Positions 22,081 through 26,399 of a stretch of DNA of 64,000 nt are shown piece by piece. Source of the DNA: Paenibacillus sp. (GTDB taxonomy: Bacteria > Bacillota > Bacilli > Paenibacillales > YIM-B00363). Where the stretch lies: assembly GCA_032117095.1 (NCBI GenBank), contig JAULZZ010000122.1, positions 168 to 64,167 of the forward strand, read 5' to 3'. Every line of letters begins with the position of its first letter. Positions within the stretch are counted from its first letter, which is position 1. The notes beneath the pieces are model-generated. The model ran no database searches. It saw only the letters and a list, made by a program, of their open reading frames with translations, and had not been told where the DNA came from. A program made the translations under genes and the position numbers.

Positions 22081-22176
22081 GGGCGTACTCTATAAATCGT
22101 ATGGCGACGGGGGTATGTCGACCATGTGCGGGAACCTCTTACATGTAAATTATACCATAAGGGTACGTCTATAAAC
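22081..22176 (+). repeat. Two direct copies of the family-2 terminal motif
   Basis: gggcgtactctataaatc (22081-22098) and gggtacgtctataaac (22161-22176) resemble GGGCACCTCTATAAAC. Confidence 0.45.
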
Positions 22177-22318
22177 ACACAAGCGAAACGCGGTACATGT
22201 ACCGATCAGGTGTGTTTGGATGAGGATGAATAAGTTGAGTCCGTATAATGTTTATTCCCGTCACGTCACAGGTGATACGAATCGCGATTTCAAACCACAT
22301 CCCCCGCGGAAAGGATAC

Positions 22319-22402
22319 GGCTTTGTGCCTCGGTTAAACCGCGGTTTGCTTTCTCGCAAAAGGGAACCCTCTGTGGTGATGTTTTCAATGGGTCATTCGG
22401 AT
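22319..22402. repeat. One-armed family-1 element (subfamily B)
   Basis: ggctttgtgcctcggttaaaccgcggtttgctttctcgcaaaag...gatgttttcaatgggtcattcggat is close to 38231-38313. Confidence 0.65.
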
Positions 22403-22602
22403 GAGATGTGCATCCCATGGGCAAAAAAGGTTCGACTTATCGCAGGTTGACGGCAACACAGGAAACGTGCGTCAAGGGAACGATGGGATGGCAAGAAACA
22501 TAGACACCTTGAAAACCAATTGTATTATAATGTGCTCTCTAGTGGATAACGGACGCATGCATGGGAGCAGGATAACACGCGTATTTTACGCAACTATGAA
22601 AA

Positions 22603-22631
22603 TTGACAACGAATTTTTTTGGTATTATGAT
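22603..22631 (+). promoter_or_regulatory. Candidate sigma-A promoter (TTGACA-17 nt-TATGAT)
   Basis: Read directly from the sequence, upstream of the 22795 CDS. Confidence 0.4.
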
Positions 22632-22794
22632 CAAAAAAGGCGCCGTGATGAGACTTGTTCAAGAGCTGACCATGCATAGGCATACGTTGTGCGCTCATCT
22701 GGGGTTCATGGATACTTTTTGCATTTGGGGGGGGTTTTTCATCCGTATCATACACGAAAAGGAACAAGGCGGAGAGAGCGCTGAGGGTCTAAAG

Positions 22795-24327
22795 ATGTAC
22801 GCACGCAGGAGGCATCATTGGACATGGATCGTGTGCCTTCTCTTGGGGAGCGGGATTGTCCCCGTGAAGCATGCCGAGGCTGTAGTGACGCTAGCACCGG
22901 CCGCTACACCGGTTTTTGTGGATATTTTGCGCACGGTAGGAGCGCTCTATTTGCTCCATGCACAAAAAGAAAGGGCGGAGCAAGAAAAAGCGTTTCGTAT
23001 AGAAAAGTACAACCAATGTATCAAAACAATCGGCGAAAATTTTTGTAGGAACATGTCCCAAAAACAAGAGAAAGATCCCAATGGGTTGATCGCGTTACTC
23101 GTTTTTGATGTGTGCAAAAATATGACGCAAAAACAGTGTGCTGAGTTGATCTGGAAAAAAATGTGCAGTTTTATAAAGTGGATGCTCGTAAAGTACGGGA
23201 TGCGCACGTATGTGGATGCGTTGAATACCTGCCTTGCGCAAGGGAAAATGGACTGTGGCAAGTTGCTTATGGATAAAATTCAACGGGATCGAAACCTAAA
23301 GATCGTCAGAGAACCTCCGAGATCGTCACCAAAAATGTCGACTTCCAGGGCACGTACTGCCTATAAAAAGAATGCGAATCCAAAAAAAGTGGAAATTCCA
23401 GTGGAAAATGGAGGTTTCCACGCCACGCGTCGGGTATTCATTGTCATCGGGATGTGTGGATCCATCGAAATGTTCGTACAGTGGGATTTTGTCCAACAAC
23501 GAAATGAAAACGAGGTAGAAGAACGATTGAGGGAATTGTGTCTCGCATTAGAAGAAACGTATAAAAATAAGGGGTTAGACGTTTCTTTCGTGAAGTACCA
23601 AATCATACTCGCAACAATACTAAAATCTGCGGGATATGCGATTCCTTCGCAACCGAGGCGTGTTTTTGTTGATCTTGATTGGGACAACGGCAATAAAAAT
23701 ACGTGGATAAAAAATAAGGTCGCCACCATCATGCATGAGTTTAGACACCTCAAACACGGAGAAATATTGCGTTGTACGATGGGGGATTTATCCGATTTGG
23801 AAGAAAAGGAAAAAAATGAAAGATATGCAAAATATGACGACCTTTCTGTGATCAAAGAAGGCGGTGCGGTGATCACGGAGTATCTTTTTTGTCCGCGGAC
23901 GATCCCATCTCGATACAATTTCATTGCAAAAAGATTTAACGTACAAAACGTGAGGGCGATCCCTTCGATAAAAAAGTTCAGAGGGGAAACGATGGATTAT
24001 TTATATGCGGCACTCTTGGTAAAAAAGTTGACAGACATGTACAATGCGCATCGCAAAAAAGGATATAATCCAGTAAAAGCGTTGGATGTAAAGATCATAA
24101 AAAAATCATTGGAAAACCACAAGGTTCCGTTGGAAAAAGTGCTCTATAAGATTTTTGAAGAAGAAACGACTTTTGGGAAATTCGATATTTTCGCCATCGA
24201 AAAAGAAATCGCAGACGAATTGAATAAAACGATGTATAGGACACCAAACAAGGCGCTGAGTTTACAAGAGATCAGAGAAAAGATGTGCAACAATCCGAGA
24301 TTGCCACGGTTGGCGTATTGTGATTAG
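22795..24327 (+). CDS. Orphan secreted protein with HExxH motif (putative zinc metallopeptidase-like), Cys-rich N-terminal region
   Basis: Signal-like WTWIVCLLLGSGIVPVKHAEA; internal repeat CRNMSQKQ / CKNMTQKQC; ATIMHEFRHLKHGE. GAGGG lies 7 nt before the ATG at 22795. The region is A/T-rich. Confidence 0.6.
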   Translation: MYARRRHHWTWIVCLLLGSGIVPVKHAEAVVTLAPAATPVFVDILRTVGALYLLHAQKERAEQEKAFRIEKYNQCIKTIGENFCRNMSQKQEKDPNGLIALLVFDVCKNMTQKQCAELIWKKMCSFIKWMLVKYGMRTYVDALNTCLAQGKMDCGKLLMDKIQRDRNLKIVREPPRSSPKMSTSRARTAYKKNANPKKVEIPVENGGFHATRRVFIVIGMCGSIEMFVQWDFVQQRNENEVEERLRELCLALEETYKNKGLDVSFVKYQIILATILKSAGYAIPSQPRRVFVDLDWDNGNKNTWIKNKVATIMHEFRHLKHGEILRCTMGDLSDLEEKEKNERYAKYDDLSVIKEGGAVITEYLFCPRTIPSRYNFIAKRFNVQNVRAIPSIKKFRGETMDYLYAALLVKKLTDMYNAHRKKGYNPVKALDVKIIKKSLENHKVPLEKVLYKIFEEETTFGKFDIFAIEKEIADELNKTMYRTPNKALSLQEIREKMCNNPRLPRLAYCD

Positions 24328-24625
24328 CGTGGAACGCATGAATGGATTGATTTTGAGCAAATTCAGGTTTTGTGAGCAGAGGCAACGCGCAACAAATCCG
24401 GTGGCAGCAAAGGCGGAAGACTGTCCATGAATGAGGATGAATACATTCACAAACGACAAATCCCCGTCCCCCTTCCTCCAGCGTCGCACAAAGACGTAGG
24501 CGTAGCGAAGGGTTTTTTGGCTACGTTTCCCCGTACAATGACAACATCACGGTGATGCCGCTGCATTTTATTCACGCAATGTATCTTATGCCAAGAAAAA
24601 AACTTACCCAGTAGAACCTTGGAAT

Positions 24626-24657: not shown

Positions 24658-24912
24658 AGGGGTACGCAACGAGAAAGGAGTGATATGCGATGCGAAATCG
24701 AGATCCCTAAGGAGCATCCTGCGTGCGTATGCGTTAGTTTTGCCACAGCGATGTACGTCGGGGCGTGAAATCGAATACGTTTGGAAAACCAAATGTGCTG
24801 TTTGGTGCATACGCAGATGCGTTGTCACCAGCAGGGGAATGCAGAGCAGAGTAGGCAAGCATCCCAAGAAGAAAGTCATGAGCAAGGAAAACACGAAGGG
24901 AGCAAGTAGACG

Positions 24913-25938
24913 ATGAAGAGCGGAAAAAGTAATCAGCTAAAACGGATGGCGATCGCAGCAGTGTGTGTCGGGATGATCGGGAGTGGGGGACTCGTGCAGG
25001 CGAAACCTGTTGTAAAACCTGTTGTAAAACCTGTTGTAAAAACCTTGAAAAATGCAGAGAAAACAACGCCTTTGATGACAAAAATGGTCATGATCCGCGT
25101 CCCCGCATCGAAGATTAAAGAAATGCCTTTGGGGGGATACGATTACATCACAAAAGTGAAGTTGCCCGACTTTGAGATCGGAAAGACAGAAGTAACAGGT
25201 GCTCTGTGGAGCGAGGTGCATCGCTGGGCGATCCAGAACGGGTATAGGTTTGCAAATAAAGGGGACAACGCTGGAAAGGACAAACCAATTACAGGGATAA
25301 GTAAGGGCGATGCAGTCGTATTTGCGAATGCATACTCGCAGTGGTCCGGATTGGATCCAGTGTATCGGGTGGCAAACAACAACAAAATACTCAAAGATGC
25401 GACGTACTTGAGATTGTATAAAAATGTAAAGGAAGGAAAGTATGACGGGTATAAATTGCCGACAAAAGTACAAGCGGAACTCACGGCAAGATTTCTTGGC
25501 ACGGTAAAGCCAGTCAAAGGATCGCTAGTACAAAAAGCAATAGCCACAAAGGGAGCAGACGGCAAGATGTATTACTGGACACCAGGGAACTATGCGAGTG
25601 GGGCGACAGACATGAGCTCCAACGAAGCCGAAACGAAAAGAGTGGCATGGATTAATCAGGGTAGCGCACAAAAGGTGTGTACAAAAGCGCTCAACTCCCT
25701 CAAAATCTGTGACATGACTGGGAATGCGTTTGAGTGGGTTGTCGATGGCTCTTTATCAGAGCTTGGATTGAACGATGATGGCTTTCGGACTCTTTTAGGG
25801 GGGACTTGCAGAATGCTCTTCAAAAGTGCGGAATGGGATAGTGACTGCGGTGAATTGCCCAGAAGCTTCGTCGGTGGTCTCCCGCCGGGATACCTTTACG
25901 GGGATATCGGCTTCCGCTTAGTGAAAAATGTGAAGTAA
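24913..25938 (+). CDS. Secreted FGE-sulfatase / SUMF1-family domain protein
   Basis: Signal peptide ending LVQA, (KPVV)3 linker, then family-typical segments: FEIGKTEVT, ITGISKGDAVVFANAYS, GNAFEWV, GFRLVKN. Confidence 0.75.
   Translation: MKSGKSNQLKRMAIAAVCVGMIGSGGLVQAKPVVKPVVKPVVKTLKNAEKTTPLMTKMVMIRVPASKIKEMPLGGYDYITKVKLPDFEIGKTEVTGALWSEVHRWAIQNGYRFANKGDNAGKDKPITGISKGDAVVFANAYSQWSGLDPVYRVANNNKILKDATYLRLYKNVKEGKYDGYKLPTKVQAELTARFLGTVKPVKGSLVQKAIATKGADGKMYYWTPGNYASGATDMSSNEAETKRVAWINQGSAQKVCTKALNSLKICDMTGNAFEWVVDGSLSELGLNDDGFRTLLGGTCRMLFKSAEWDSDCGELPRSFVGGLPPGYLYGDIGFRLVKNVK
25003..25038 (+). repeat. Three perfect 12-nt tandem repeats (aaacctgttgta) encoding KPVV x3
   Basis: Read directly from the sequence; in frame within the 24913 CDS. 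Confidence 0.9.
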
Positions 25939-26015
25939 CCTTGTTGGATGGTTTTCTTTTTACATTTTCAATTTTCACTTCTTTGAATTTTTATGGCGTA
26001 TAAAGGGCGTACAAA

Positions 26016-26070
26016 GCACACCGTGGCAGAAAGACTTCTCCTTTACTGTGTTGCGGTGTGCGTTTTCATT
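26016..26070 (+). terminator. Candidate terminator after the FGE-like gene
   Basis: GCACACCG...CGGTGTGC followed by gttttcatt. The loop is long, so the call is weak. Confidence 0.4.
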
Positions 26071-26206
26071 AACGGAATGAACAAATAAAAAAAAAACGGA
26101 AGACCCCTGAAAATCAATTTCGCGGGGTTTTTCGATGTGATGTTTCGTGGAGTGGGCTCAAAGACACGCAAAAACAATGTTCCCCCGTAGCGGGAAAACA
26201 AAAGCT

Positions 26207-26272
26207 GGTTTAACCGAGGCACAAAGGCCTAGCCCTTCCGCGGGAGATATGGGTTGAAAACGTGATTCGTAT
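26207..26272. repeat. One-armed family-1 element (subfamily B)
   Basis: ggtttaaccgaggcacaaagg...gttgaaaacgtgattcgtat is the closest relative of 38-114. Confidence 0.6.
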
Positions 26273-26311
26273 TACGTCTGCGCAAAAAGAAATGTGCTGT
26301 GTCTCCTTGAA

Positions 26312-26399
26312 GGATGCCTCTATAAAAGCGCATCACCATTGGCAAAAAAAGCGTTGGTTTGTGGCAACGTGATTTTTTTACAAATCGGTTTATCAAACG
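26312..26399 (-). repeat. Family-2 inverted-repeat element (degenerate distal end)
   Basis: ggatgcctctataaaagc...gtttgtggcaacgtgatttttttacaaatcggtttatcaaacg aligns with the reverse complement of 50815-50910. Confidence 0.6.

Follow-up and report, generated by a model that had tools for sequence, protein, structure and literature searches.

Gene content and composition of the PBP-accD segment

We analyzed a 64,000-nucleotide (nt) stretch of DNA (the window) from the Paenibacillus sp. assembly GCA_032117095.1 (contig JAULZZ010000122.1, here C122), and in particular the segment at positions 21840-26518, which separates a gene for a class A penicillin-binding protein (PBP) from a small open reading frame (ORF) and accD. 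The source assembly comprises 1.74 Mb in 157 contigs, is 91% complete and has a GC content of 49.7%. (In what follows, G000 is this genome, G001 is a congener from the same genus, and L078, L079, L163 and L164 are contigs of related strains.) A first-pass annotation had described the segment as an A/T-richer islet with two exported proteins and long untranslated spacers, bracketed by repeat termini in a geometry resembling a composite or mobilized cassette. Our findings make it likely that the PBP-accD spacer arose through piecemeal accretion of lineage-specific accessory DNA and not through one transposition. Its principal features, one of which is named for its match to the formylglycine-generating enzyme (FGE) family, are the following.

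22795-24327, + strand: secreted HExxH protein of 510 amino acids (aa), from a lineage-restricted family; putative gluzincin-type zinc peptidase (invariant residues in paralogs)
24468-26066 (approximate), + strand: paralogous FGE-type cassette of 1.6 kb, comprising an upstream piece, a promoter, a leader of ~255 nt, the coding sequence and a 3' hairpin (DNA homology)
24913-25938, + strand: secreted TvpA/CarF-like protein with a predicted C-type-lectin fold of the FGE subtype, paralog of the variable proteins of a diversity-generating retroelement (DGR) (Pfam, model, Foldseek)

Both ORFs (510 and 341 aa) lie where the first-pass annotation had placed them, and both have signal-like N-termini in which a charged stretch is followed by a hydrophobic one and an AxA-type site (HAEA/VV in the HExxH protein and VQA/KP in the FGE-like protein). 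The untranslated spacers measure 955, 585 and 580 nt, and the GC content is indeed lower, at 44.5% over 21840-26518 compared to a genome mean of 49.7 +/- 2.9% in 4.7-kb windows (5th percentile). Among genes, that for the HExxH protein (42.4% GC) falls at the 6th percentile and that for the FGE-like protein (47.4%) at an unremarkable 21st, while GC at third codon positions (GC3) is within the genome range for both (16th and 28th percentiles, respectively). The GC dip of the segment results from its 45% share of non-coding DNA (the genome-wide non-coding GC content being 45.7%) together with a Lys-rich protein, and is no evidence for foreign origin. Neither an integrase nor a tRNA was found at the borders of the segment, an Rfam scan of the region returned no match, and scans with phage and defence libraries returned no meaningful match.

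Presence and absence of the segment in a congener and in related strains

The flanks against which the segment was compared, and the part of it that one strain lacks, are as follows.

17589-18611, + strand: lacI-type regulator (gene-order listing)
18696-21839, - strand: class A PBP, left housekeeping flank (Pfam Transgly 2e-54 and Transpeptidase 2e-28; G001 ortholog 61% identical)
24375-26387, no strand assigned: 2013-bp segment absent from L079 (L079 alignment)
26432-26461, + strand: promoter-like site of the small-ORF/accD operon, start of the right housekeeping flank (TTGAAT-18-TATCAT with TG; consensus scan)
26518-26709, + strand: conserved 63-aa ORF (tblastn identity of 47-60%; directly upstream of accD in 8 relatives, all those examined)
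26960-27832, + strand: accD (Pfam Carboxyl_trans and Zn_ribbon_ACC; accA and pyk next)

An empty site, which the first-pass annotation had proposed to look for in related genomes, is present in G001, where one contig carries lacI, the PBP gene (61% aa identity), ~206 bp, the small ORF and accD, with the whole ~4.5 kb missing. The segment therefore does interrupt a housekeeping run in a lineage-specific manner, although the reading of that break as a mobilized cassette did not hold up. Base-pair mapping of the insert against G001 aligned only the ribosome-binding site (RBS) and start of the small ORF, so that exact boundaries could not be mapped. The small ORF and accD stay together in family-level relatives, where the PBP gene is not adjacent to them. 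No further empty site emerged from a scan of metagenome contigs with accD (nothing closer than 65%) or from a scan of genome contigs with the FGE-like protein (distant Planctomycetota and similar matches only).

Two short contigs of related strains, L078 and L079, were reached through the 90% protein cluster to which the HExxH protein belongs. L078 (98% identity) spans 22438-24648, beginning just past a copy of the family-1b repeat described below and ending within a poly-T run. L079, which comes from the LakePulse Boreal Plains co-assembly, is 94% identical and covers 22663-24374, continues with 40 nt of the left end of a family-1a repeat, and resumes at GTTTATAAAGGTGCGC (a right terminal inverted repeat (TIR) of family 2, 14/16 positions), matching 26388-26468; the region from 26388 onward is kept. 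What L079 lacks is the FGE cassette, its terminators, a family-1b copy and the body of a family-2 element. The HExxH gene is retained, and because L079 keeps this gene without 24375-26387, the islet consists of at least two modules. Moreover, since the strain indel starts mid-islet, at 24375, the HExxH gene and the FGE cassette are separate modules. The first-pass annotation had tied its reading to presence/absence edges that coincide with repeat termini; this is true of the right edge (26387/26388), which lies at a family-2 terminus, but not of the left edge at 24375. (Note that L079:1-29, in this public JGI contig, is an Illumina adapter, tctttccctacacgacgctcttccgatct, which suggests an unpolished co-assembly contig of low coverage.)

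Two families of MITE-like repeats in and around the segment

The repeats at the locus belong to two families resembling miniature inverted-repeat transposable elements (MITEs).

21864-21976, no strand assigned: family-1a MITE-like repeat (~105-110 nt, TIR ATACGAAACAC; repeat finding)
22081-22098, + strand: doubtful family-2 TIR-like motif GGGCGTACTCTATAAATC, which fits the TIR only with an indel; no core follows
22161-22176, + strand: solo family-2 left-type TIR GGGTACGTCTATAAAC, with 2 mismatches to GGGCACCTCTATAAAC (14/16); no element body follows
22267-22405, no strand assigned: family-1b MITE-like repeat (~155 BLAST matches genome-wide)
26183-26280, no strand assigned: family-1b MITE-like repeat, inverted relative to 22267-22364 (repeat finding)
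26312-26403, + strand: family-2 element, with left TIR at 26312-26327 (12/16), core, and degenerate right TIR at 26388-26403 (7/16)

Family 1 is an imperfect palindrome of ~105-135 nt with ends of the ATACGAAACAC type; it forms ~345 blocks genome-wide and is present in 50% of spacers of at least 300 nt and 57% of those of at least 500 nt. Family 2 is ~100 nt long, has the 16-nt TIR GGGCACCTCTATAAAC and forms ~70 blocks genome-wide (93% in non-coding DNA), occurring in 15-21% of spacers of at least 300-500 nt. Clean family-2 insertions are flanked by 4-bp duplications (e.g. ATTG, CAAT and TAAT), and insertions of family 2 nested within family 1 were seen. Family 2 combines the defining features of a MITE, namely a short non-coding unit, TIRs, many dispersed copies and target duplications. 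In size, TIR, copy number and 4-bp duplications it resembles bacterial MITEs with TIRs of the insertion sequence (IS) type, as family 1 does in its size and abundance, but no autonomous parent was found in this assembly. The congener G001 is nearly without both families (3 and 2 partial matches).

Across the genome, 94 sites match the family-2 TIR with 2 or fewer mismatches, compared to ~0.9 expected. The first-pass annotation had placed two direct copies of the family-2 terminus on the left side; that at 22161 is genuine, whereas that at 22081 is doubtful, needing an indel and containing a 9-mer, CTCTATAAA, that occurs outside full family-2 elements at about chance frequency. The surrounding 141 nt (22060-22200) have no other genomic match. 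The whole family-2 element that it had placed on the right side is present; ~60 copies across the genome match its core, and the right TIR, at 14/16 in L079, has decayed here to 7/16. Flanking family-1 copies, too, were found as described (21864-21976, 22267-22405 and 26190-26275). The inverted family-1b pair surrounds both genes (22267-22364 and 26183-26280; 98 nt, 79% complementary), which is expected at such repeat density. Bracketing by family 1 is no more than chance and bracketing by family 2 is mildly unusual; unlike in a composite arrangement, the MITEs here bracket genes merely through density. (The family-2 core forms a hairpin at 26351-26370 with an A run and a T run, terminator-like on both strands, which sits between the FGE cassette and the promoter of the accD operon.)

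The HExxH protein belongs to an orphan, lineage-restricted family

A candidate promoter precedes the HExxH gene by 164 nt.

22603-22631, + strand: promoter-like site of the HExxH gene, TTGACA-17-TATGAT, 11/12 (consensus scan only)

The 5' untranslated region also contains a G8 run at 22727-22734; L079 has G5 there, with different neighbouring bases.

The HExxH protein had no match in Pfam, NCBIfam, PHROG, PADLOC or PDB sequences, and a word-indexed search of 5.8 billion proteins returned only its own 90% cluster. Four to five paralogs with 22-28% identity are encoded in the genome (on C87, C100, C41, C117 and partly C113), and no homolog was found in G001 and 29 other relatives. A profile search of 1.84 billion representatives with the family retrieved 15 proteins, 2 of which touched DUF6782 ("putative metallopeptidase") below the cut-off. 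Residues H314, E315, H318, E355, G357 and A358 are invariant in six family sequences, paralogs of 22-24% identity included, and a C-terminal C...P.LP..YC motif (C498, C509) is invariant across the paralogs. The AlphaFold model is weak (pLDDT 58.6), and its fold neighbours are gluzincin peptidases only, all of them weak (Foldseek best E 8e-3, TM ~0.2). No significant peptidase family or fold match was obtained.

The HExxH protein resembles the gluzincins (M1 aminopeptidase N / LTA4 hydrolase; Pfam DUF6782) in its invariant HExxH and the downstream Glu of an EGGA motif, as well as in the uniformly gluzincin character of its weak fold matches and the sub-threshold contact of two family members with DUF6782. 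It differs from them in lacking a significant sequence or fold match, in a Cys-rich helical N-terminal half without counterpart, and in the confinement of its family to this lineage. On balance, the conserved motif and the model incline us, by a little, towards a secreted zinc peptidase of a lineage-restricted family.

The FGE-like protein has a predicted TvpA-type lectin fold

Of the two islet ORFs, only that of 341 aa had a Pfam match (FGE-sulfatase, 2.9e-13). By tblastn there are ~32 FGE-type domains in this genome, 21 in the congener, 1 in a sister genus and at most 1, weak, in other relatives; some of them lie within multi-domain proteins of 1276-1345 aa. (Giant proteins of 905-1345 aa with at least two FGE-type domains are encoded at C21:1-3862, at C81:22864-25782 and by two ORFs on C108, and the C-terminal domain of the giant C21 protein contains a DGR-type variable repeat (VR).)

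The model of the FGE-like protein (pLDDT 76.5) is confident at residues 50-280 and poor at residues 281-326. In Foldseek searches it was closest to CarF (2.4e-14) and TvpA (1.8e-13); true FGEs, PvdO and EgtB scored 1e-6 or weaker, the true FGEs, at 1e-6 to 1e-5, lying eight orders of magnitude below CarF and TvpA, and phmmer matched the protein to 2y3c at 9e-5. The model thus has the FGE-subtype C-type-lectin fold of a TvpA-type DGR variable protein. A role as a true formylglycine-generating enzyme in sulfatase maturation was considered and rejected, as there is no conserved catalytic Cys pair and the true FGEs are the weaker fold matches: across 34 FGE-type family members, no invariant or near-invariant column is a Cys, and the two Cys that the window protein has, C298 and C315, lie 16 residues apart in the low-confidence loop. 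As modeled, then, the FGE-like protein is a TvpA-type lectin-fold binding protein and not a sulfatase-maturing enzyme.

25003-25038, + strand: 3 x 12-nt tandem repeat encoding a KPVV linker after the signal peptide (direct reading)

The three exact 12-nt units of this linker encode KPVVKPVVKPVV, and paralogs have different Pro/Lys-rich linkers at the same place. The length of the linker after the signal peptide may also vary through slippage.

A DGR elsewhere in the genome targets paralogs of the window gene

The genome encodes exactly one reverse transcriptase (RT), on contig C90, where an FGE-type target gene, an HRDC gene, bAvd, the RT gene and a template repeat (TR) follow one another.

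C90 (outside the window): DGR with target at 4050-4640 (- strand), VR at 4057-4178, HRDC ORF at 2564-3001, RT at 1243-2331 and TR at 1012-1133
25904-25924, + strand: sole stretch of the window that matches the TR, 21 nt at 95%, encoding conserved DIGFRL (BLAST of the TR against the genome)

The RT matches RVT_1 (61.8 bits) and contains IGNLTSQ and YMDD, and its neighbours match bAvd (9e-16) and HRDC (2e-16). Mismatches in the 122-nt TR/VR pair of C90 comprise 14 A and 1 C. Paralogs on C47, C21, C105 (twice) and C91 have 3' ends that match the same TR, again with adenine-biased differences, such that the TR-matching paralogs (C90, C47, C21, C105 and C91) have 14-21 A mismatches compared to 1-6 others. 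This pattern indicates that C90 carries a complete DGR with at least five remote targets. The congener G001 has the same target-RT arrangement.

The window gene has no comparable variable repeat: its TR match is limited to 21 nt, and the VR-equivalent residues 281-326 of its product are diverged, longer and of low pLDDT, the RT and accessory proteins being those of C90. By these features it appears to be a paralog of the DGR targets and not a current target.

DGR variable proteins with an FGE-subtype C-type-lectin (CLec) fold, and DGRs with multiple targets, are established (PMC4891356, PMC5006420, PMC6328139, PMC5758913). The Treponema denticola TvpA/DGR system (PDB 2Y3C; PMC4891356, PMC5006420, PMC6328139) shares with the present one an exported multigene family with the FGE-subtype C-type-lectin fold and a single DGR (RT, Avd and TR) in which the TR and the C-terminal VRs of several paralogs match apart from adenine-specific differences. 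Relative to that system, the window copy differs in matching the TR over only 21 nt and in having a longer, Cys-containing loop, and the system here differs in its larger family (~32 domains in 1.74 Mb), in a poly-T promoter common to about a dozen members, and in an HRDC accessory gene.

A shared promoter with a poly-T spacer

Regulatory features of the FGE cassette are given here.

24626-24657, + strand: promoter TTGACA-(TCG T16 G)-TATAAT with a 20-nt spacer (TTGACA at 24626-24631, T run at 24635-24650, TATAAT at 24652-24657)
26016-26061, + strand: terminator-like hairpin with U run, conserved among cassettes (-25.2 kcal/mol, z -2.5; homology to the 3' regions of C105, C141 and C19)
26097-26134, no strand assigned: second hairpin with A run and U run, bidirectional terminator-like (-19.7 kcal/mol, z -4.0)

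The cassette has DNA homology partners on C105, C141, C19, C81, C111 and C130; nucleotide identity is 88% in the signal peptide (to C105) and ~71% in the mature domain. A promoter module, aaaCTTGACATCG-T(n)-GTATAATAGGGGTATGCAACGAGAAAGGAG (in its short form TTGACATCG-T(n)-GTATAAT), is common to 12-13 cassettes, among which the T runs range from 6 to 16 and the spacers from 12 to 20 nt; four copies have a 17-nt spacer and three (C105, C141b and the window copy) have one of 20 nt. In G001, the full-length homolog is preceded by TTGACATCG, a mixed 17-nt spacer and TATGAT. The fact that the hexamers are kept in the congener promoter argues that they are the conserved promoter elements and that the T tract is a recent derivation.

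As in phase-variable promoters, the homopolymer forms the spacer itself, with recognizable hexamers on both sides, and the tract varies in length while its flanks are conserved (among paralogs, and as T13 versus T14 at a syntenic site, in short-read assemblies). We infer that slipped-strand changes in the poly-T tract could give rise to phase variation, and that the window copy, with its T16 tract and 20-nt spacer, is probably off or weakly expressed. Homopolymer-in-spacer switches on surface-protein families are established for the poly-A of Mycoplasma hyorhinis vlp and the poly-G of Treponema pallidum tpr. The likeness to those systems lies in a conserved promoter, leader and signal peptide joined to divergent mature regions, and in a homopolymer that constitutes the -35/-10 spacer and differs among copies and between strains (T13 versus T14). 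Unlike those systems, the host here is of Gram-positive type, the tract is poly-T, the cargo is a lectin-fold family, and the homologous promoter of the congener has an ordinary 17-nt spacer.

Two candidate features of the ~250-nt leader were rejected. A conserved RNA structure had a covariation term of +1.04 and weak energy, and upstream ORFs, which are open or fused in some paralogs and inconsistent in frame, were treated as non-coding. In four cassettes (C141:7750-8135 and three on C19) a family-1 MITE occupies one and the same leader point, just past CGAAATCGTGATC; either the MITE prefers this point as a target, or it was carried along when the cassette was duplicated in tandem.

Cassettes turn over between strains

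At a site between an acyltransferase/MFS pair and htpG (C19:26586-31379 compared to L163:5600-7140), this genome has three tandem cassettes, with T13, T16 and T15, and L163, from a strain ~95% identical, has one, with T14; the flanks are 93-96% identical and the cassettes ~74%. The L163 cassette is preceded by a family-1 MITE, whereas the three cassettes here carry MITEs inside their leaders. L164, which is syntenic with the cassette upstream of the S10 operon, contains a gene mosaic with 76% identity in the 5' half and 94% after it. Compared with their flanks, the cassettes change much more rapidly in number, sequence, T length and MITE position. Single cassettes also lie between housekeeping operons in L164:260-1231 (upstream of the S10 ribosomal operon) and L163:6001-6963 (acyltransferase gene/htpG). 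For this lineage a lone cassette in a housekeeping spacer is the norm and not a peculiarity of the PBP-accD spacer.

Origin of the segment

Under piecemeal accretion, the spacer would have grown from ~0.2 kb to 4.7 kb through separate gains in a small (1.74 Mb) uncultured Bacillota genome. The gained material would comprise an HExxH gene of an orphan five-member family, with its own promoter; a separate 1.6-kb cassette from a ~30-gene family of secreted TvpA-like lectin-fold binding proteins; and five to six MITE-like repeats, from two families that fill about half of the larger spacers genome-wide. Probably the MITEs play no part beyond leaving insertion debris and supplying portable homology for indels.

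The proposal of a mobilized cassette requires a family-2 transposase to have moved both genes as one unit between the outer termini (22081/22161 and ~26399). Only one TIR pair has compatible geometry, 22161 on the left with 26388-26403 on the right; the former is real and faces inward, the latter belongs to a real element and points the other way, and the right edge of the strain indel (26387/26388) and the limit of lineage-specific DNA coincide with this family-2 right end. However, only 7/16 positions of the right TIR match, against 14/16 on the left, and the flanking ATAA (left of 22161) and ACTA/TAGG (right of 26403) form no target-site duplication. Nor does the block behave as a unit, given that the strain indel begins inside it, at 24375 and not at a repeat, and that the homology limits of the FGE cassette (~24468-26066) do not match the repeats. 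A search for the same two-gene pair elsewhere, as suggested in the first-pass annotation, found no second copy, the HExxH paralogs and the FGE paralogs lying on different contigs, and the repeats are ubiquitous, with family 2 in about one-fifth of long spacers anyway. Neither an autonomous element carrying family-2 TIRs nor any long TIR-bounded element encoding a transposase was found in the assembly (91% complete), and its one DDE_Tnp_1 ORF, on C89, has no family-2 TIRs nearby. A single transposition bounded by family-2 termini thus fails on terminus integrity, target duplication, block unity and second copy, no parent element for it was found in the assembly, and we regard it as very improbable. 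As a transposon claim the locus does not matter, the bracketing being a by-product of MITE density. An equally slender prospect, and if anything a fainter one, is acquisition of the islet from a foreign donor, which would account for the lower GC content (5th percentile of 4.7-kb windows) and the orphan proteins; against this, the GC3 of both genes is within the genome range (16th and 28th percentiles), both genes have paralogs in the same genome, the HExxH protein has no homolog outside the lineage, and there is neither a phage, plasmid or defence family match nor a border integrase or tRNA.

More serious, though still unlikely in our judgment, is that the block is ancestral to the genus and was deleted in G001, and partly in L079, during genome reduction. 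Both genomes are reduced (1.4-1.7 Mb compared to 2.7-7 Mb in the family), so that deletions are common; both species have the FGE family and the DGR; and the L079 junction, which keeps the family-2 right TIR and a MITE fragment, fits a deletion scar. The HExxH family, however, has no match in G001 and 29 other relatives, and in family-level relatives the PBP gene does not adjoin the small ORF. Moreover, G001 has next to nothing of the poly-T module and the MITE bursts, which argues that most of the block content is younger than the species split. Several points weigh against piecemeal accretion and the interpretations attached to it. The congener is distant (PBP 61% aa) and its spacer cannot be aligned past the RBS of the small ORF, so that gain here and loss there are told apart by parsimony only. 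L079, just one short contig from a co-assembly and starting with an adapter at the 5' end, could be chimeric, the poly-T lengths are taken from short-read assemblies, and the peptidase call draws on motif conservation and sub-threshold fold and family matches. Finally, the solo left TIR and the full right element are correctly oriented as a pair, which leaves a past MITE-mediated event a small probability.

Implications for the lineage

The locus itself is of an ordinary kind; what sets it apart is how large the family is for so small a genome, together with the combination of mechanisms. The secreted lectin-fold family is probably kept variable in more than one way. Strain comparisons show turnover in copy number and recombination among the paralogs; the adenine-specific TR/VR mismatches show that the DGR on C90 rewrites the C-terminal binding site of at least five of them; and slipped-strand change of the poly-T in the -35/-10 spacer of the shared promoter could be a third source of variation. 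A bolder reading, which we consider less likely than not, is that these act as three layers of a single system: gain, loss and gene conversion of cassettes at the strain level, DGR mutagenesis of the binding loop in some members, and slippage that turns about a dozen cassettes on and off independently of one another. The window copy is most likely silent or weakly expressed now and outside DGR targeting, because its C-terminal loop is diverged and longer without a TR match and its promoter has a 20-nt spacer (T16). If the three-layer reading is true, the window copy would be a silent, DGR-escaped reserve cassette parked between housekeeping operons, and the lineage would be a Gram-positive-type analogue of antigenic variation in mycoplasmas and treponemes, a hint at a host- or partner-associated lifestyle. 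(An expansion of collagen-like proteins, considered as a Pasteuria-like trait, was not seen, as the genome has only one collagen-repeat ORF.)

The orphan HExxH family stands out as a good candidate for a new family of secreted metallopeptidases, and the locus is a useful marker of how a small genome spends on accessory DNA. Some 30 DGR-type binding-protein domains in 1.74 Mb represent a large investment for a genome one-third to one-quarter the size of those of its family relatives. The large family, the live-looking DGR, the shared homopolymer promoter and the turnover of cassettes among strains that are 94-98% identical suggest that ligand binding, at the surface or by secreted proteins, is under strong diversifying selection in this uncultured lake bacterium.

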